This document shows, piece after piece, positions 45,659-57,290 of a stretch of DNA of 59,962 bases. The stretch comes from Candidatus Zixiibacteriota bacterium. Lineage in GTDB: Bacteria > Zixibacteria > MSB-5A5 > GN15 > FEB-12. The notes below the pieces were generated by a model that saw only the letters and a program-made list of their open reading frames with translations, was not told where the DNA came from and did not search any database. The position numbers and the translations under genes were made by a program. Each line of letters begins with the position of its first letter. Position 1 is the first letter of the stretch. The stretch is taken from positions 2,982,074-3,042,035 of the forward strand of contig CP070756.1 in NCBI GenBank assembly GCA_020348905.1. Reading direction: 5' to 3'.

Positions 45659-48319
45659 ATGGCGGCAGACGAATCAAACGACGATCAGACTCAGTCCTTC
45701 GTCGCTCTGGCAAAAGACACCGCGGTTTCACACTACACGATTATCGACAAGATTGGGTCAGGGGGGATGGGTGACGTGTACCTGGCCTGGGACACCGAGC
45801 TTGACCGCACCGTTGCCCTCAAATTCCTGCACCTCAATCTCTGCCGGGCCGAGGATTGTCGCAAGCGCTTCAAGCGCGAGGCTCAGGCCGCGGCAAGACT
45901 GGACCACGCCAACATTGTCACCGTCCATGAAGTCGGCGAGTTCCAGGGCCGACCGTATTTCGTAATGCAGCATGTTGAAGGGCACTCGCTGCGGCATTTG
46001 ATTAAACAGCGAGAACTCTCCCTTGAGCAAACCATCGACCTGGCGATCCAGATTTGCGAAGGACTTCGCGAAGCGCATGAGCTTGGCATCATTCATCGAG
46101 ACATCAAATCCTCCAATATCCTGCTCGACGGCCGCGGCAACCCGAAGTTGGTGGACTTTGGCCTGGCCACTATTGCCGGCACCGACAAACTGACCAAGCC
46201 GGGCTCTACGATGGGGACGGTTGGGTATATGTCGCCGGAACAGGCCGAGGGCAAACAAGTTGACCAGCGGTCCGACCTGTTTTCCCTTGGCGTCGTCCTG
46301 TATGAGATGATCACCGGGCGGCGTCCCTTCGACCGTGATAATGAAATCGCCACCAGCAAAGCCATCGTAACCGATACGGCCGAGCCACTGGCGCGGTACA
46401 AATCCGGAATCCCGGCCGAGCTTCAGCACTCGATCGAAAAGGCGCTGCAGAAGGATCCGGACACGCGCTATCAAAGTGTTAACGAATTTCTGGCCGACCT
46501 GCGCTTGATTAAGCGGCAGATGGATTCAGGCATAACCGGGCCATCAGCCGAGCAGCTGTCGCCGCGCAGACCAGGGCGCCGCGGGGCGGCCGTCGCAGTG
46601 CTCTTCTTAACGGCCCTGGCCGTTATGTTCTGGCTAAACCCGACCATCCGGCAAGCAGCCTTGGAGATGTTGGGATTCGACGTGGATCGCACAGCCCGGC
46701 ATCTGGCCGTGTTGCCCTTTACAAACCTCGGTGAGACCGATGAAGGCCGCGCGCTATGCGATGGCCTGTTGGAAACGCTAACCAGCAAACTCACCGAAAT
46801 TGAAAAATTCCAATCCGCGCTCTGGGTCGTGCCGGCCAGCGAGGTGCGCCAGCGGAAAGTCAACAGTGCCAGCCAGGCCCGTCGGACCTTTGGTGCTACT
46901 CTGGCTGTCACCGGCAGCCTTCAGCAGATTGACGGGTACATCCGCATGACCCTGAACCTGGTCGATACGAAAACACAACGCCAACTCCGGTCGGTGGTAA
47001 TCGATGATTCGGCTGCCGACGTTTCATCACTCCAGGATTCAACCGTGCTTATGCTGGCGGATATGCTTCAGGTACAGCTCCAGCCGCAGCAACGGCAGAG
47101 CCTGATGGCCGGAGGCACCGCCGAACGTGAAGCGTACTTGCTTTACGTTAAGGCGCGTGGACACCTGGCCCGGTTTGAAAAAATAGAGAATATCGACACG
47201 GCCATTGCGGCATTCAAGCAAGCGCTTGACATCGACTCAGCCTATTCCCTGGCTTATGCCGGACTGGGGGAAGCTTACTGTCGCAAGTATGAAGTCCTCG
47301 CCGAACCGGATTACGAGGAATTGGCCATATACAACAGCCGGCGAGCCATCGAACTCAATGATGAGGCTGCTCCTGTTTACGCCACCCTGGGCGTCATTCA
47401 TCATGGCCGGGGCAGGTATGAACAGGCCGTTTCGCAATTCGAGCAGGCCCTGAGACTCGATTCAGCCAGCCGCAGCTCCTATCGCGGACTGGCTGCCGCC
47501 TACACGGCCCTTAATAAGAATCCCGAAGCCGAATCCACGTACAAGGAAATCATCAAGTTGTGGCCCGACCACTGGTCAGGCTACGTAGACCTGGGGCTGT
47601 TCTACCAGCGGCGCGGTCGCGTCGACGACGCACTCGCCCAGGTGGACCGCGCCACCCGCCTTGAACCGGAGGGTTATGCTGCCTGGAATAACGTGGGCGT
47701 TCTATACTATCGGTTGGGGCGATATGATGACGCCCGCAAAGCCTGGGAACGGTCCTGTGAGATTGAACTGACCTTCGGAACCTGCTCCAACCTGGGCATG
47801 CTTTACCATACGGAGAAACGTTATCAGGAGGCCGCCGAGGCCTACCGGAAGGCGCTGGTACTGAACGACCAGGATTACCGGCTCTGGATAAACCTTGCCT
47901 CGTCCCTGTATCAGGTACCGGGAGCTCGCGAGGAAGCCGTTACCGCCTACCGGGAGGCCATCGTAAGAGCCGAACGACAATTGACAATAAATCCTCGAGG
48001 TACCGAACTGTTGTCCAGCCTGGCCGATTGCTATGCCGTGCTTGGTGACCGTAACAGGGCCATATCGTACATTCAGCAGGCGTTATCTCAAGCCCCCGAC
48101 GATGTAGAGGTCATGAGCACCGCCTGCCTCGTTTACGAGCTCCTCGGCGAGCGCGATACCGCCCTGATGTGGATAGCGGAGGCTGTCAACCGCGGACACC
48201 TGCCTGACGACATCGAATCGCTGCCGGAGATGCAGGGTCTGACCGGCGATCCGAGGTATCAGGATCTTATCAGCACCGGCAGCGTTGAATCCCGGGGGGA
48301 TACGACTTCACGTCGGTAG
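45659..48319 (+). CDS. Ser/Thr protein kinase with TM segment, periplasmic domain and C-terminal TPR repeats
   Basis: Kinase motifs are GSGGMGDVY, VALK, HRDIKSSN, DFGLA, GYMSPE. The TM helix is AAVAVLFLTALAVMFWL. Multiple TPRs follow (AYAGLGEAY, VYATLGVIHH, AWNNVGVLYY ...). Confidence 0.9.
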   Translation: MAADESNDDQTQSFVALAKDTAVSHYTIIDKIGSGGMGDVYLAWDTELDRTVALKFLHLNLCRAEDCRKRFKREAQAAARLDHANIVTVHEVGEFQGRPYFVMQHVEGHSLRHLIKQRELSLEQTIDLAIQICEGLREAHELGIIHRDIKSSNILLDGRGNPKLVDFGLATIAGTDKLTKPGSTMGTVGYMSPEQAEGKQVDQRSDLFSLGVVLYEMITGRRPFDRDNEIATSKAIVTDTAEPLARYKSGIPAELQHSIEKALQKDPDTRYQSVNEFLADLRLIKRQMDSGITGPSAEQLSPRRPGRRGAAVAVLFLTALAVMFWLNPTIRQAALEMLGFDVDRTARHLAVLPFTNLGETDEGRALCDGLLETLTSKLTEIEKFQSALWVVPASEVRQRKVNSASQARRTFGATLAVTGSLQQIDGYIRMTLNLVDTKTQRQLRSVVIDDSAADVSSLQDSTVLMLADMLQVQLQPQQRQSLMAGGTAEREAYLLYVKARGHLARFEKIENIDTAIAAFKQALDIDSAYSLAYAGLGEAYCRKYEVLAEPDYEELAIYNSRRAIELNDEAAPVYATLGVIHHGRGRYEQAVSQFEQALRLDSASRSSYRGLAAAYTALNKNPEAESTYKEIIKLWPDHWSGYVDLGLFYQRRGRVDDALAQVDRATRLEPEGYAAWNNVGVLYYRLGRYDDARKAWERSCEIELTFGTCSNLGMLYHTEKRYQEAAEAYRKALVLNDQDYRLWINLASSLYQVPGAREEAVTAYREAIVRAERQLTINPRGTELLSSLADCYAVLGDRNRAISYIQQALSQAPDDVEVMSTACLVYELLGERDTALMWIAEAVNRGHLPDDIESLPEMQGLTGDPRYQDLISTGSVESRGDTTSRR

Positions 48320-49712: not shown

Positions 49713-49800
49713 TGGCGGAGGAGGTAGGATTCGAACCCACGGTACCGTACGGTACAACGGTTTTCAAGACCGCCGCTTTCGACCACTCAGCCACTCCTCC
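49713..49800 (-). tRNA. tRNA-Ser (anticodon TGA)
   Basis: Reverse complement reads GGAGGAGTGGCTGAGTGGTCGAAAGCGGCGGTCTTGAAAACCGT...GGGTTCGAATCCTACCTCCTCCGCCA. It has anticodon loop CTTGAAA, a long variable arm and an encoded CCA. Confidence 0.9.
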
Positions 49801-52350: not shown

Positions 52351-52447
52351 AATTGACGGTCCTGATGCGCGATTGGGATATTGTTAGTACCAGGCTCAGA
52401 TCGGGCAGCAACTGTACCGAACAAGAATTCTAAAGCGGGGTGAGTAT

Positions 52448-53212
52448 ATGTCAATTATCATGATGGGAATATTGGCCAGCACCGGAGCCGGACTGCTTAG
52501 CGGCGTGGGAGCGTTGCCGGCAATCTTTTTCAAAAACGTTCCTGACAAAGTAATCAACACCATGCTGGGCGCCGCCGCCGGCGTTATGCTCGCCGCTACT
52601 TCGTTTTCACTGATAGTCCCCGGAATTGAACACGGCGACACTATATGGCCGGGATGGGGTGCTTACATAGTGGTTTTCGGCATGCTGCTGGGAGCTGTCG
52701 TTCTCGACCGGGTGGACAAGATGCTGCCTCACGAACACTTCTTCATCGGTCGCGAAGGCCCCGACACAAGGCTAAAGAAGATCTGGCTGTTTATAATTGC
52801 GATAACGATACACAATTTTCCCGAAGGTCTGGCGGTAGGTGTCGGGTTCGGCACCGGCGATGTAGGCGCCGGGCTTAGTCTGGCAATAGGTATCGGTCTG
52901 CAGAATATGCCCGAAGGACTGGCGGTGGCCCTGCCCCTGCTGGGGCTCGGCTACAGCCGCTGGGCCGCTATCAGTATCGCCACCCTGACCGGCCTGGTGG
53001 AAGGGGTTGGAGGGCTGCTGGGCGTTGGAGCCGTAACGATCTTCAACCCGATTCTTCCCTTCGGTCTGGCCTTTGCCGCCGGGGCTATGCTTTTCGTTAT
53101 CAGCGATGAGATTATTCCGGAAACTCACTCCAAGGGCAAATCACGGCTGGCCACCTTCGGGGTGATGGTCGGATTTGTTATCATGATGGCTATGGACAAC
53201 GTCCTGGGTTGA
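52448..53212 (+). CDS. zupT: ZIP-family divalent metal (zinc) transporter
   Basis: It has 8 predicted TM helices. The signature is IHNFPEGLAVG and QNMPEGLAV, with the ZupT-like length of 254 aa. Confidence 0.85.
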   Translation: MSIIMMGILASTGAGLLSGVGALPAIFFKNVPDKVINTMLGAAAGVMLAATSFSLIVPGIEHGDTIWPGWGAYIVVFGMLLGAVVLDRVDKMLPHEHFFIGREGPDTRLKKIWLFIIAITIHNFPEGLAVGVGFGTGDVGAGLSLAIGIGLQNMPEGLAVALPLLGLGYSRWAAISIATLTGLVEGVGGLLGVGAVTIFNPILPFGLAFAAGAMLFVISDEIIPETHSKGKSRLATFGVMVGFVIMMAMDNVLG

Positions 53213-53234
53213 TTATATACCGGGGAGGGACAAC

Positions 53235-54350
53235 ATGTCATTGCCGTCAGCAGTACTGCTGTCGCGCCAGGCTCTGCATCCGTCTCGACGACACCCGTGG
53301 GTGGCAAAATCCATCGACGCGGTTAAATATCTGAAGCAACATAACCACAGGCTCTGCTCATCGACAAACGTCCAGACCTGGGAGATGCTCACCGCCCTCG
53401 GAAGTCTCTACGGGCTCGAACTGGAAATTCACCTCCCCTGCCACGACGAGCAACAGTTTCAGGCTTTGTCGTCTGATGCTGTTGAACAGTTTGACCTGAA
53501 CCCCCGAGAAACGCAGTTCGTACCGGTACTGGCAGATCCAGCAAAAACCACACGGAAAGATCTCTGGCTCGGCCGCGACAAAAGCATAATCGAGCGCGCT
53601 GACATTATCCTCCCTGTTAGCGTTCGTGCGGGCGGAAAGATGGAGTCAATGATCAAGGAGGCAGGAAATAACGGAAAAACCGTCTGCCGTGACTTCGCCG
53701 CACCCTATCGGTATCGCAAGTCTCCCCTGTCCTATCGGATCACCGGCAGAAAGCTTAACCCTCAACTGCGAGAACTGGGACGCACCTATCTTATTCACTG
53801 GACCCGAACCTTCAACTCGGCCTGGCCTACCGAGAAACTCCTGGATTTTTACCGGGCCATAGTTGAGTCGGACACTTACCCGCGCACCGCTTGCGGTAGT
53901 CTCAGAAATATCGTTTCCATGCAACTAATCAAGGCCACCTCGAAACATATGCCGGAGAACACGCCCACCGTCTCATTTTCAAATCGTCCGCCAGCCGAGA
54001 TGACCAGTCTGATAGCGTGGCGCTCACGCTACCGCATGATGTCGTTTGAACCGTACGGGATAGGTATAGAGAAAGGGCTTGCAAGGCAGATGAATATCAT
54101 GCCCGTCGTCTATTATGATAAAGCGCAGCCATCAGTCAGCAAATGTAATGTCAGAACGCCGGGATGGCTGACCCAATCGCGGGGCGAGAAGACTGACTGG
54201 AGTCTGGAGGATGAATACCGGCATCTCGGTGACTTGAATCTCTCGTCGATTTCGAAAGATCGGCTGATTCTTATCTGCCGCACCAGCCCCGAGGCCGAAG
54301 CGATAGCGAATCTCAGTGGAGTAACCGCGGTACCATTTACAGTTGACTGA
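53235..54350 (+). CDS. Fusion protein: DprA/SLOG-like Rossmann domain plus AbiGi-like domain (function unknown)
   Basis: It has an RBS (ggggaggg). The N-terminal half reads AVLLSRQ...CSS...RDKSIIERADIILPVSVRAGGKMESMIKEA..GKTV (DprA/SLOG-like). The C-terminal half reads YLIHWTR...VSFS...FEPYGIGIEKGLARQMNIMPVVYY...EDEYRH (AbiGi-like pattern). Confidence 0.6.
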   Translation: MSLPSAVLLSRQALHPSRRHPWVAKSIDAVKYLKQHNHRLCSSTNVQTWEMLTALGSLYGLELEIHLPCHDEQQFQALSSDAVEQFDLNPRETQFVPVLADPAKTTRKDLWLGRDKSIIERADIILPVSVRAGGKMESMIKEAGNNGKTVCRDFAAPYRYRKSPLSYRITGRKLNPQLRELGRTYLIHWTRTFNSAWPTEKLLDFYRAIVESDTYPRTACGSLRNIVSMQLIKATSKHMPENTPTVSFSNRPPAEMTSLIAWRSRYRMMSFEPYGIGIEKGLARQMNIMPVVYYDKAQPSVSKCNVRTPGWLTQSRGEKTDWSLEDEYRHLGDLNLSSISKDRLILICRTSPEAEAIANLSGVTAVPFTVD

Positions 54351-54359
54351 AAATTTGCC

Positions 54360-57290
54360 CTACCTAATAAGGACCATCTTCTTAGATTCTTTGAAATCCG
54401 CCGCCTCGAGCCGGTAAAGGTATACCCCCGAAGACAGGTTAGTCGAAGCGAAGTCGATTTCTATCAGACCCGGTCCGTCGCGGCCGGCGAACTCCCAGAC
54501 CTTGCGGCCGAGGATATTATAGACACTGAGAGTGTAGTTGGCGTTGTTTCTCAAGTTAAACGTGATCCTGGTTCCGCTGTTGAACGGGTTGGGATAATTC
54601 TGATGCAGGGCAAATTCTTCCGGCAGAGGCGGCGGCGGTGGCGGCGGCTCGCCCTCAATGATGAAATCCGCATAAGCCTCAAACGCGTTCGCCGCTGTGG
54701 CCTGGATGTCGGCAAAGGTGTGACCTGCGATAAACGCAAACGTGACCGTATCCACCTCGCCTTCGGCTAACGAAGTCTGCGCCGCTACCACCTGGAACAG
54801 ATCGAAGGAACCTGTCCGGAGCGAAACCGGCGTGGCCAAACCACGCCTCAGCGCACTCATCTTGTCTTCATTAAAGTAGCATCCCCAGCCTAAAGGCGGA
54901 CACGAGATCATCGACGTCGAGTCGGTGTAAACCGTCACCAGTTGACCCTGTAGCACTTTTATGCCGCGGTAATCCGACAAGCCTGAGCCCGAGTTGTAGG
55001 CCATCCATGCAAATTGATCCGTTGATTCAAACCCGGCGGCGTTGCTGCTAAAATCAACAATGTCCCAGTCGCAATGAATGCCGACATAGAGATTATCGAT
55101 GTCACCCGAACCGCTGTTTCTCAGAACATACTGTATAATGACCATGTCCTGGTAGGGCGAGGTTTCAAACGAGTAACTGTTCTGTTCGATCGTCAGCCCG
55201 ATCGGGTCCTCGGCCCTATCGTCGGTGAACCGCGCATAACTCTGCTGTGCCACCCCTTGAAACGGCGGAATGAACTCGAAAGTCCCGCCTGACACCACGC
55301 CAAAGTCACCATCCGGCTGCCCCACCGCCGTCTGTACTCCATCGGAAACCCGGTCGACGCCGGTGCCAATCATCAGGCCGCCGTCGAAAAGTTCATTGAC
55401 TCCCCCCATAAACCTGAACCCTTCCCCGCCGCCCGGCCAGAAGGAGTCATCGGCCATTCCGAACGTACCGAAATTGCTTATGCTGAATTCGACCGTACCG
55501 GTCGTGTGGGTCACTAAGCCGCGCTCGCTGAGCGGGTCAACTACGATATAGAGTTGCCTTGTTACCGAGTAATTGCTGCCTTCAATTAAAAGGCCAATCG
55601 GTAACGTTGAGCCTACTTTGACAGTATCCGCTACCCGAATCCGAAAAGCCGTCTGTCCGGAAACTGTCTGCCCCTCGGCGATGGTGCCAAAGCCAGTCGT
55701 TCCGGCCAGAATCGATACGGCATCATTGTTGTCTATCAGGGTACCCGTCACTCCGGTGACGGTTGCCCCGAAATTCTTCAGCACCAGGGTCCCGGTCACT
55801 TCATCACCCGGATCAATCGGGGCATGGTTGAACGAATATACCCTGACGTTCGGCTCCGGGTTGACCCCGTCAAGGGCGTTCAGGGCAGCCATACAGTCAA
55901 TCAGGCCCCAACCATAGATGTTGTTAGGTAGAAACTCACCCAGTTCATTAGTTGACGTCAGAATCGCTTCCTTGATTTCATCAACGGTGGCGTTGGGATT
56001 CTTCTGTCTGAGCAATGCAACCAAACCGGAAACGTGAGGTGCCGCGAATGAAGTGCCCGACCCAAAGCTATATGACGCTCCGGGCACGGGAAATCTTACC
56101 AACACACCGGGTGCTACCACATTCGGTTTTACTGCCAGGGGGTTGCAGTCCGATGGCCCCCGCGACGACGTTGGCGAAATTACTCCTGTCGCATGATTGA
56201 TACTTCCAATCGCAAAGCAATCTAACGAGTCAAGCGCCCGGTTAGCCGGGTTACGAATGGTCGATGGCAGCGATCCCTCGTTGCCGGCCGAGAAGATGTT
56301 GACGATTCCCAGGGCCTCGGTATTATCTATCATGGTGTAGAAGATATTCTCACAGTCGATGCCCGAAACCCCCCAGCTGTGGCTGATTACATCCGGGACA
56401 TCGTCGATCGTATTCGGGTCACGATCAGGGTTGGATGCCCACTCGAAACCGTCGATGATCGAAGCTCCGTCAACATCAACCACTCCCCCCGCTATCCACT
56501 TCGCATCAAGAGCAACCCCAACTGTATCGCCCCTTAAGTCGTCGTGTCCTACCACGAGCCCGGTCGTTGCTGTGCCGTGCCTGGGGTCTGCGCCGCCTAT
56601 CACCGGCAGGGTATGCGGAAAAGGCTCACCGCCGACCGGATCGAACCAGGCCGCCGCCGAATCACCATCAAGCCCCTTCCAGTTGTTGTATATCGCCGGA
56701 TGAAGTCCATCAACGCCCGTATCAAGAATACATACCACTCGTCCCTGTCCGGTATATCCGGCCGCCCACGCCGCCGGCGCATTAATATACGCGAGATTGG
56801 CTTCAACCGAAGCCGACGAAACTGACCCTGACGATATCTTCTCATTGGCAACTGATACTACCTTCGGTGCTGAAAAGATGATTTCAACATCGCTTCGAGC
56901 CGACAGTTCAGTGAGCTGCTCAACCATTACTTCAGCCTCAACAACATTTATTATCCAATGTCCCTTGGGCGGCCTGCCTGCTGTCTGTTTGCTTCGATTA
57001 ATCGAATGAAGATGGTCCAGCAGGTCCCGCTGAGCAGCAGCATGATTGGATTTCAGACGGTCCAAAGCCAGGCGGTATCTTTCCGCCCTGGTGGGAGCTT
57101 TCAAACTGGCTTTGAGATTGGCCGGACTCTCTACCTGGGGCAGTTGAATCCAAACCTTGATAAGATCGGCCGCCTTGCTCGTGGTCACTTTCCGAGCCAG
57201 TTCGTCCGACAACCGACCCGCGGCCGCGCTGGAGTAAAGCAACGTAAATGTTAGAATAAACGCTACAGTACTTTTTGTTCTGAAAATCAC
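54360..57290 (-). CDS. Subtilisin-like S8 serine peptidase with T9SS-type C-terminal sorting domain
   Basis: The catalytic contexts are VCILDTGVD, HGTATTGLVVG and GSGTSFAAPHVSGL. It has a signal peptide, a PPPPPP linker and the CTD NYPNPFNSGTRITFNL...GVYLYRLEAADFKESKKMVLIR. Confidence 0.9.
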   Translation of the reverse strand: MIFRTKSTVAFILTFTLLYSSAAAGRLSDELARKVTTSKAADLIKVWIQLPQVESPANLKASLKAPTRAERYRLALDRLKSNHAAAQRDLLDHLHSINRSKQTAGRPPKGHWIINVVEAEVMVEQLTELSARSDVEIIFSAPKVVSVANEKISSGSVSSASVEANLAYINAPAAWAAGYTGQGRVVCILDTGVDGLHPAIYNNWKGLDGDSAAAWFDPVGGEPFPHTLPVIGGADPRHGTATTGLVVGHDDLRGDTVGVALDAKWIAGGVVDVDGASIIDGFEWASNPDRDPNTIDDVPDVISHSWGVSGIDCENIFYTMIDNTEALGIVNIFSAGNEGSLPSTIRNPANRALDSLDCFAIGSINHATGVISPTSSRGPSDCNPLAVKPNVVAPGVLVRFPVPGASYSFGSGTSFAAPHVSGLVALLRQKNPNATVDEIKEAILTSTNELGEFLPNNIYGWGLIDCMAALNALDGVNPEPNVRVYSFNHAPIDPGDEVTGTLVLKNFGATVTGVTGTLIDNNDAVSILAGTTGFGTIAEGQTVSGQTAFRIRVADTVKVGSTLPIGLLIEGSNYSVTRQLYIVVDPLSERGLVTHTTGTVEFSISNFGTFGMADDSFWPGGGEGFRFMGGVNELFDGGLMIGTGVDRVSDGVQTAVGQPDGDFGVVSGGTFEFIPPFQGVAQQSYARFTDDRAEDPIGLTIEQNSYSFETSPYQDMVIIQYVLRNSGSGDIDNLYVGIHCDWDIVDFSSNAAGFESTDQFAWMAYNSGSGLSDYRGIKVLQGQLVTVYTDSTSMISCPPLGWGCYFNEDKMSALRRGLATPVSLRTGSFDLFQVVAAQTSLAEGEVDTVTFAFIAGHTFADIQATAANAFEAYADFIIEGEPPPPPPPLPEEFALHQNYPNPFNSGTRITFNLRNNANYTLSVYNILGRKVWEFAGRDGPGLIEIDFASTNLSSGVYLYRLEAADFKESKKMVLIR

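Follow-up and report, generated by a model that had tools for sequence, protein, structure and literature searches.

A near-universal single-copy gene of the Zixibacteria predicted to join a DprA-like SLOG domain to an ADP-ribosyltransferase-fold domain

The SLOG-ART fusion gene described here lies in a window of 59,962 nucleotides from Candidatus Zixiibacteriota bacterium (contig CP070756.1 of NCBI GenBank assembly GCA_020348905.1, positions 2,982,074 to 3,042,035 of the forward strand), and encodes a protein of 371 amino acids, P0001, in which an N-terminal SLOG-type domain is joined to a C-terminal domain with the predicted fold of an ADP-ribosyltransferase (ART). The gene starts 22 nt past the stop codon of a metal transporter gene of the ZIP family and has a ribosome binding site of its own, as an earlier reading of the sequence alone (hereafter the sequence-only reading) had described. 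A scan at the level of consensus sequences found no promoter-like or terminator-like site within the 22-nt gap, and the two genes are probably co-transcribed in the window. To our knowledge, bacterial ARTs of the DarT/AbiGi-like kind have hardly been described outside mobile toxin-antitoxin and abortive-infection systems, where they are the toxins, and the sequence-only reading had proposed P0001 as a single-gene conflict or defence protein. The same predicted fold, with an intact-looking active site, is here carried by a single-copy gene across most of a candidate phylum, which points to a cellular, non-conflict use. The features of the gene and its immediate surroundings are collected in Table 1.

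Table 1. Coordinates of the SLOG-ART fusion gene, its domains and motifs, and adjoining features in the window.
Feature	Position	Strand	Basis
Promoter-like site 5' of the ZIP gene, candidate promoter of a transcript covering ZIP and the fusion gene	52353..52382	+	Consensus scan, 9/12 matches, extended -10 TG; weak
Upstream ZIP-family metal transporter gene	52448..53212	+	Pfam Zip on orthologous cluster
Shine-Dalgarno-like run GGGGAGGG, 5 nt before ATG	53222..53229	+	Read from sequence
SLOG-ART fusion gene (P0001), 371 aa, ATG start	53235..54350	+	Open reading frame and translation
Predicted N-terminal SLOG/DprA-like Rossmannoid domain, residues 1-160	53235..53714	+	Foldseek, VIA-align, ESM Atlas
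S10-R11-Q12 loop after strand 4-9	53262..53270	+	Invariant in 48/48; AlphaFold model
P127-V-S129-x-R131-x-x-G134 loop after strand 5 (residues 124-129) of the SLOG domain; putative counterpart of the DprA/LOG glycine-rich loop on the sequence-only reading	53613..53636	+	P127 and G134 invariant; S129 and R131 at least 90%
Inter-domain linker, residues 161-178	53715..53768	+	No regular secondary structure; pLDDT 77 for residues 161-170
Predicted C-terminal ART-fold domain, AbiGi-like, residues 179-371	53769..54347	+	VIA-align, Foldseek, PADLOC AbiGi
H188-W-T190-R191, candidate ART motif I (HxT), end of beta-1 (residues 185-189)	53796..53807	+	Four residues invariant
S247-F248-S249, candidate ART motif II (SxS), beta-2 (residues 245-249)	53973..53981	+	V246 and F248 invariant
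M269-S-F-E-P-Y-G275, most AbiGi-like block, continuing into GIGI...PV.Y293	54039..54059	+	All but S270 invariant
E325-x-E327-Y-R329, candidate ART motif III (ExE, catalytic glutamate), entry of beta-5 (residues 327-331)	54207..54221	+	E325, E327 and R329 invariant
Convergent S8 peptidase gene with type IX secretion sorting tail; conserved right-hand synteny anchor, not a functional part	54360..57290	-	Peptidase_S8 and Por_Secre_tail

Strong selection acts on the open reading frame (ORF), which is a genuine gene rather than a product of chance, since it has more than 190 full-length homologs (38–77% identical) and since 1404 cluster representatives match the family at E ≤ 1e-3 in an exhaustive HMMER search, 253 of them at E ≤ 1e-30. 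A word-indexed search returned 191 relatives, of which the best 120 are nearly all 360–376 aa long, carry no Pfam domain or functional name and come, where the source is named, almost exclusively from Zixibacteria bins. Conservation was read from an alignment of 48 family members, in which 33 columns are invariant: S10, R11, Q12, W22, S43, W49, R114, D115, P127 and G134 in the first half of the protein, and H188, W189, T190, R191, W197, P198, E200, V246, F248, R263, M269, F271, E272, P273, Y274, G275, Y293, Q314, G317, W322, E325, E327 and R329 in the second. Conserved blocks include LLSRQ, P127/S129/R131/G134, M269-x-F-E-P-Y-G275 and E325-x-E327-Y-R329, and all of the motifs quoted in the sequence-only reading occur in P0001, most of them strongly conserved over the 48 homologs. 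The AlphaFold model built on this alignment (mean predicted local distance difference test score, pLDDT, 92.2; predicted template modelling score 0.89) has two alpha/beta domains separated by a linker at approximately residues 161–178. Stand-alone relatives of the C-terminal domain were sought with a domain profile among proteins of 103–352 aa and with a single-sequence query among shorter ones, and none was found; the searches returned only truncated or mis-started copies of the fused family, none with Pfam annotation.

One longer form was encountered, P0165 (659 aa, on a single 4.3-kb ENA contig), which contains a whole SLOG-ART protein at residues 300–657 and could be either a real fusion or a gene-calling artefact. 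For its N-terminal extension (residues 29–180) no PDB relative was found, and the only resemblance is to an unannotated ORF of 171 aa 5' of a ZnuA operon (L096:1699-2211); a DtxR regulator was considered for the extension and ruled out, that ORF being the only match.

For the N-terminal domain, structural comparison points to the SLOG superfamily. DprA/Smf and the DprA-like antitoxin ShosA are members of this superfamily that bind single-stranded DNA (ssDNA), and these are the best structural matches. Foldseek returned ShosA (8zva, E 1.8e-4) and DprA (4ljk, 5mll, 3maj and 3uqz, E approximately 1e-3) together with YpsA and the Moco carrier protein (MCP), all four kinds at a probability of 1.00. 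VIA-align, applied to the full model, gave Z scores of 12.3 for ShosA, 11.0, 10.7 and 9.9 for DprA, 10.2 for MCP, 9.9 for YpsA, 9.2 for TM1055, 9.1 for LOG, 8.8 for YvdD and 8.7 for TT1887, and its ten best matches are all DprA, LOG, YpsA, MCP-type or LOG-like structural-genomics entries; the SLOG domain of ThsA (Z 6.4) and the N-terminal domain of TRPM2 score below the ShosA/DprA group. The nearest named ESM Atlas clusters are short DprA-like (PF02481) proteins (score 0.85), which we take as a lead only, and the sole Pfam SLOG match is a weak one, to PF18306 (SLOG cluster4) in two of the 48 members (E 0.15). On the model, the domain is a Rossmannoid fold of the SLOG superfamily and of the DprA-like kind, in agreement with the sequence-only reading. 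In Rossmannoid domains of the SLOG/TIR type, polar residues of the loop after strand 1 contact the nucleotide (PMC9503650); the S10-R11-Q12 loop directly follows the first strand (residues 4–9) in all 48 members, as expected of a SLOG-type domain.

The resemblance is one of fold and not of orthology, because PF02481 (E ≤ 0.1) finds four loci elsewhere in the genome, namely the canonical DprA (E 1.8e-73) and three paralogues, but no match at the SLOG-ART gene (3035308–3036420). Unlike DprA, moreover, the protein lacks the SAM and C-terminal domains, and its N-terminal domain of approximately 160 aa is fused to an ART-fold domain instead. As a separate observation, an extra DprA-like (PF02481) paralogue of 301 aa (837667–838572, minus strand), outside the window, shares a tight co-directional run with the only macrodomain gene of the genome (835000–835518); this locus (G000:C1:835000-838572; L132, L153) could be a separate SLOG-Macro module concerned with NAD or ADP-ribose (ADPr).

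Two lines of comparison place the C-terminal domain among the ARTs. In VIA-align with the full model, four DarT entries match it at Z 7.7–8.3 and Tpt1 at 6.7. The domain was also folded alone (pLDDT 87) and compared with 48,161 chains. Only 83 of them reached Z ≥ 2, and ARTs make up the greater part of the 50 best. The four best of these are DarT structures (7yk3_C, Z 7.9, 141 aa aligned at 3.6 Å; 7omv, 7.7; 7omu, 7.3; 8baq, 6.9), their alignments spanning 131–141 residues, and they are followed by Tpt1 (6.4), scabin (5.0) and, lower down, SPN (3.4); PltA, pertussis toxin, LT, pierisin, RES, ParT, PARP16, Arr and C2-I are also among the top 50. The top four Foldseek matches are likewise DarT, at weak E values (0.03–0.26). 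We predict from these results that the domain has an ART core fold, with the same six strands as DarT, and it is the near purity of the hit list in ARTs, rather than the Z score, on which this assignment depends.

By sequence, AbiGi is the only family matched repeatedly by profiles, and it is also the nearest by language-model features. AbiGi is the first gene of the lactococcal AbiG abortive-infection pair. The PADLOC AbiGi model (PDLC02331) matched 15 of the 48 members (best E 2.7e-5, 20 bits), always below the family cut-offs, and Pfam AbiGi (PF10899) matched five (best E 1.2e-3), all of them short of the 22.4 bits at which Pfam sets its cut-off. PF10899 is also the annotation of 23 out of the 30 named clusters closest to the domain in the ESM Atlas. 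At best the AbiGi model covers residues 188–305 (in P0064, beta-1 to beta-4) and otherwise only the FEPYGIGI...PV.Y block noted in the sequence-only reading, the M269–G275 part of which is aligned in every member that matches. The common pattern can be written H.T ... FS ... YGIGI...PV.Y ... E.E.R. The AbiGi-like character proposed in the sequence-only reading is thus borne out, as a relationship that the profiles indicate to be remote homology and not membership. It differs from AbiGi in that P0001 itself is not matched, in the fusion to a SLOG domain, in the missing AbiGii partner (see below) and in being encoded by a chromosomal, single-copy gene, seemingly inherited vertically, rather than a plasmid-borne or patchy one. 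A PF10899 search of 121 Zixibacteria genomes gave no matches, but 14 control genomes were equally silent and the result is uninformative on absence. AbiGi is listed among ART-like families close to DarT and DUF2971 (PMC12522546), so that the AbiGi-like sequence assignment and the DarT-like fold agree.

The ART signature has been given as [R/H]x[D/T] - [S/Y]x[S/x] - [Q/E]x[Q/E/D] (PMC12522546), and a corresponding tripartite site, H188-x-T190, S247-F-S249 and E325-x-E327, appears intact when motifs are assigned by their position in the predicted strands. Positions 247 and 249 are mostly S, T, A or C across the 48 members; DarT1 is active with Ser at the motif II position (PMC11543638), a further likeness to the SLOG-ART protein. 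The second-best fold family, Tpt1/KptA, has an Arg-His-Arg-Arg tetrad in place of the ExE motif seen here. It is nevertheless instructive as a housekeeping ART acting on nucleic acid, which demonstrates that ARTs need not be toxins.

The family profile was run on 201 sampled genomes of the Zixibacteria, the phylum of the window, and found the SLOG-ART gene in 166 of them (150 of the 179 high-quality genomes), nearly always with a single match per genome. It occurs in every sampled genome of ten families (f2, f3, f4, f5, f7, f8, f9, f14, f15 and f18), in 67 of 73 genomes of f1, in three of four of f13 and, as a weak match, in one of eight of f11, and in no sampled genome of families f6, f10, f12, f16, f17 and f19. 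Match strength declines steadily from genus to class. DarT is an ART toxin of the DarTG system that modifies bases of ssDNA, and genuine DarT (PF14487) served as an internal control; only 18 of these 201 genomes carry it, and they are dispersed among 12 families. A mobile conflict gene would be expected to show such a patchy spread, whereas the SLOG-ART gene is near-universal. Named records extend the family to the Fibrobacterota (Chitinivibrionales, Chitinispirillaceae and Fibrobacter bins) and to a well-supported clade of bins labelled Desulfobacteraceae. In a quick maximum-likelihood protein tree, taxon labels cluster far beyond chance (none of 500 shuffles scored as low), which fits mostly vertical descent; the deep nodes lack resolution, so that the tree does not settle the matter against ancient transfer between phyla.

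Two peripheral points arose from the same genomes. Many contigs titled 'uncultured Ignavibacteriales bacterium' are contigs that the GTDB-based set places in the Zixibacteria family of the window (L109, for example, is G013:C1), and such titles (L057, L109, L097 and others) show the NCBI labels of these bins to be unreliable for taxonomic conclusions. In addition, several Zixibacteria DarT genes (in loci L133–L150, for instance L136, L137, L138 and L139) lie in frames of 390–507 aa, approximately twice the length of DarT, which suggests fused DarT-antitoxin forms.

The gene neighbourhood was compared across 20 loci of 20 kb and 78 loci with 8-kb flanks, the latter with counts made on 74. The S8 peptidase gene stands directly downstream in 46 of the 74, followed by DUF6125 and an NAD-dependent epimerase. 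Two conserved blocks alternate as the left flank: one pairs an unannotated protein with a beta-helix protein, and the other comprises an M20 peptidase and endonuclease V, with YbbR and TsaD among its further genes. No defence gene, AbiGii, macrodomain or NADAR gene is adjacent to the SLOG-ART gene in the 20 and 78 loci, nor is any defence gene found within about 8 kb in the 78, and the statement of the sequence-only reading that no AbiGii-like partner adjoins the gene holds for the window and the surveyed loci alike. PADLOC, run on ten neighbours in the window, gave only generic kinase and subtilase matches.

In 24 of the 74 loci the gene immediately upstream, on the same strand, is one for metal homeostasis, at gaps of 1–129 nt. 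The slot is filled by ZIP in 11 loci (gaps 1–89 nt), by Nramp followed by Usp in eight, by a ZnuA/ABC ATPase/ABC-3 permease importer in three and by a DtxR-type regulator in two (examples among L052–L131 are L053:7206-7967, L097:6153-7954 and L085:3979-7928). Three unrelated kinds of divalent-metal importer thus share the position across Zixibacteria lineages, and repeated replacement rather than a single event is indicated, because the module types are interleaved on the protein tree. This arrangement suggests that the SLOG-ART gene may be expressed with the response to metal limitation, and the recurrent position behind three unrelated importer types offers a concrete lead on its regulation. 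Elsewhere the closely coupled gene in front is of another kind. EEP nuclease/phosphatase genes overlap the SLOG-ART gene by 1–4 nt in two bins labelled Desulfobacteraceae (L088:7186-7989 and L091:7108-7992), a gene for an HD phosphohydrolase overlaps or tightly adjoins its start in a Fibrobacteres bin (L131:7202-8005), an alpha/beta hydrolase occupies the slot at L064:6997-7992, and a VIT1 transporter does so in one Fibrobacterota locus. The coupling of phosphoesterase-type genes outside the Zixibacteria may hint at a nucleotide or nucleic-acid pathway.

Potential partners in ADP-ribose metabolism were also sought. The only macrodomain gene of the genome lies 2.2 Mb from the SLOG-ART gene, and neither ARH nor NADAR was found in the genome. 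Macro is present in 182 of the 201 genomes, including families without the SLOG-ART gene, and is absent from many genomes that have it, such that the two do not co-vary. In these respects the gene departs from DarT, which is paired with a DarG macrodomain or NADAR partner that is here neither adjacent nor co-varying; PF14487, furthermore, has no match in the genome of the window or at the locus. Canonical Tpt1 (PF01885) is without a match in this genome and occurs in five of 101 genomes, three of the five in families that lack the SLOG-ART gene. Complementarity with Tpt1 was considered and set aside as a weak hint at best, most genomes without the SLOG-ART gene being without Tpt1 as well.

We consider, with slightly better than even confidence, that P0001 is an active cellular ART whose SLOG domain delivers single-stranded nucleic acid or senses a nucleotide or ADPr, perhaps expressed with the metal-limitation response. 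Its two-domain architecture and its non-mobile status are well supported, and catalysis is probable. The protein would be a two-domain cytoplasmic enzyme, composed of an NAD+-dependent ART of an AbiGi-like branch, structurally nearest to the nucleic-acid-modifying ARTs DarT and Tpt1, and a DprA-like SLOG module with a putative conserved ligand pocket (S10-R11-Q12, S43, R114-D115 and P127..R131..G134). Binding of single-stranded nucleic acid or of a nucleotide/ADP-ribose-type ligand by the SLOG domain might deliver substrate to the ART domain or control when that domain is active. Such a role would be cellular, the gene being single-copy, apparently vertically inherited and set in housekeeping synteny rather than in a mobile toxin-antitoxin or abortive-infection cassette, and in approximately one third of the loci it would probably be co-transcribed with divalent-metal importers (ZIP, Nramp-Usp, or the ZnuABC type with a DtxR-type regulator). 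If the enzyme is active, it would open a way to study ADP-ribosylation as an endogenous process of free-living bacteria, with nucleic acids as possible targets, and would illustrate the domestication of conflict-system domains.

Several results weigh against this interpretation. Single-sequence scans of P0001 found nothing in Pfam (E ≤ 10), PADLOC (E ≤ 10) or PHROGs and one chance-level match in NCBIfam, and no family model reaches its own cut-off on the protein; profiles of the whole protein and of either domain returned only chance-level matches among PDB sequences, with no solved structure. The Z scores of 7–8 for the C-terminal domain are 'middling' on the scale of the tool, and an hhalign comparison of its profile with 18 Zixibacteria DarT sequences was null (probability 1.3%), so that the domain is not a member of the DarT family. 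The catalytic motifs are candidates assigned by their position in predicted strands. Charge of the domain is mildly basic and highly variable between members, and isoelectric point was dropped as a proxy for DNA binding because of that variability. An ART without a cognate eraser would be unusual if DNA were its target. As for the link to metals, the metal gene is missing from approximately two thirds of the loci and may reflect a variable slot beside a conserved gene; no operator-like inverted repeat or palindrome was found in the ZIP promoter region.

A more specific form of the cellular interpretation, tentative and in our view rather unlikely to be correct as it stands, is that of a housekeeping 'writer' in the Zixibacteria and Fibrobacterota that ADP-ribosylates the cell's own ssDNA or RNA, co-expressed with metal importers and operating without a dedicated eraser. 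The DprA-like domain would here hand a single-stranded substrate to the DarT/AbiGi-like ART. Were this so, the protein would be a domesticated relative of toxin ARTs, serving endogenous regulation or repair signalling under metal stress.

Defence was the function assigned by the sequence-only reading, and the fusion architecture on which that proposal was built stands, as does its remark that no characterised protein is known to have this fusion, a search of a paper library having found no mention of AbiGi together with SLOG. The functional part is not supported, because the gene is near-core, syntenic, single-copy and, within its genus, beside a ZIP (zupT-like) gene. That reading had itself set against a defence role the case of a core gene that adjoins zupT and never lies near defence genes, which is what the surveys returned for the genus of the window. 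The patchy spread, variable location and defence-island neighbourhood of mobile defence genes were not observed: the SLOG-ART gene is in 166 of 201 genomes against 18 for DarT, and its synteny is conserved. A fixed, single-polypeptide defence or abortive-infection module, in which an ART toxin is restrained in cis by a SLOG antitoxin or sensor until a phage cue arrives, is a separate proposition that we judge unlikely. It would account for the fact that the best structural relatives are parts of conflict systems (the antitoxin ShosA and the toxin DarT, with AbiGi besides), and the SLOG domain of Thoeris ThsA, matched here at Z 6.4, does act as a sensor (PMC9503650); nor would a cis-inhibited design need the separate antitoxin that is missing nearby. 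It accords poorly, however, with a gene that is near-universal and nearly all-or-none by family, that has conserved housekeeping flanks clear of defence genes, and on whose product PADLOC finds nothing. A 'defence-like' architecture alone does not predict a defence role.

The place of Tpt1 as the next-best fold after DarT (Z 6.4–6.7) raises the question of RNA-end processing or repair, in which the ART domain, like Tpt1/KptA, would move an RNA 2'-phosphate (or 5'-phosphate cap) to NAD+, leaving the SLOG domain to bind or process the ADP-ribose derivative so formed. Invariant arginines (R191, R263, R265 and R329) are as expected for phosphate binding, SLOG domains have been predicted to process ADPr derivatives (PMC9503650), the rarity of canonical Tpt1 and its bias towards families lacking the SLOG-ART gene would suit such a role, and EEP and HD phosphoesterase genes overlap the gene start in some lineages. 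We nonetheless hold this to be improbable, since an ExE motif is what one expects of transferases that modify bases or proteins and not of the H-H-h/Arg-tetrad clade of Tpt1, the genomes without the SLOG-ART gene mostly lack Tpt1 too, and no RNA ligase, 2H or RtcB neighbour occurs at the surveyed loci.

An equally doubtful case can be made for a small-molecule role, with the ART fold working as an NAD+ glycohydrolase or as the maker of an ADPr-derived signal, and the SLOG domain sensing or hydrolysing a nucleotide, such that no macromolecule is modified and the lack of an eraser presents no problem. ART-fold NADases exist, and SPN is among the C-terminal matches (Z 3.4); SLOG/LOG domains bind or cleave nucleotides and ADPr derivatives (PMC9503650), and LOG, YpsA and TRPM2 are matched at Z 7–10. 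The closest folds of the C-terminal domain are nevertheless macromolecule-modifying ARTs, the N-terminal domain is nearest to the DNA-binding DprA/ShosA clade and not to LOG/YpsA, albeit by a small margin in Z, and the LOG catalytic motif PGGxGTxxE is absent. Last, a catalytically dead pseudo-ART scaffold with no function beyond binding to nucleic acid or to a protein partner, which the failure to reach any family threshold and the SFS at motif II in place of the classical Y or STS might suggest, is highly improbable given that 33 columns are invariant among approximately 40%-identical sequences, concentrated at the ART motif positions and in the SLOG pocket, and that DarT1 is active with a motif II Ser (PMC11543638).

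Some further features of the window deserve mention. An 886-aa Ser/Thr kinase with a TPR region (45659–48319, plus strand) scores against the PADLOC PD-T4-6 kinase models at E 2.8e-93, which is probably generic kinase-domain similarity; its gene is conserved beside the SLOG-ART locus only within the genus. Upstream of the SLOG-ART gene, at a distance of 3.4 kb, is a tRNA gene (49716–49800, minus strand; Rfam tRNA, 61 bits), and no sign of an integrated element was seen between the two. The stop codons of the SLOG-ART gene and of the convergent S8 peptidase gene are 9 nt apart (54348–54362), leaving no space for a terminator hairpin.

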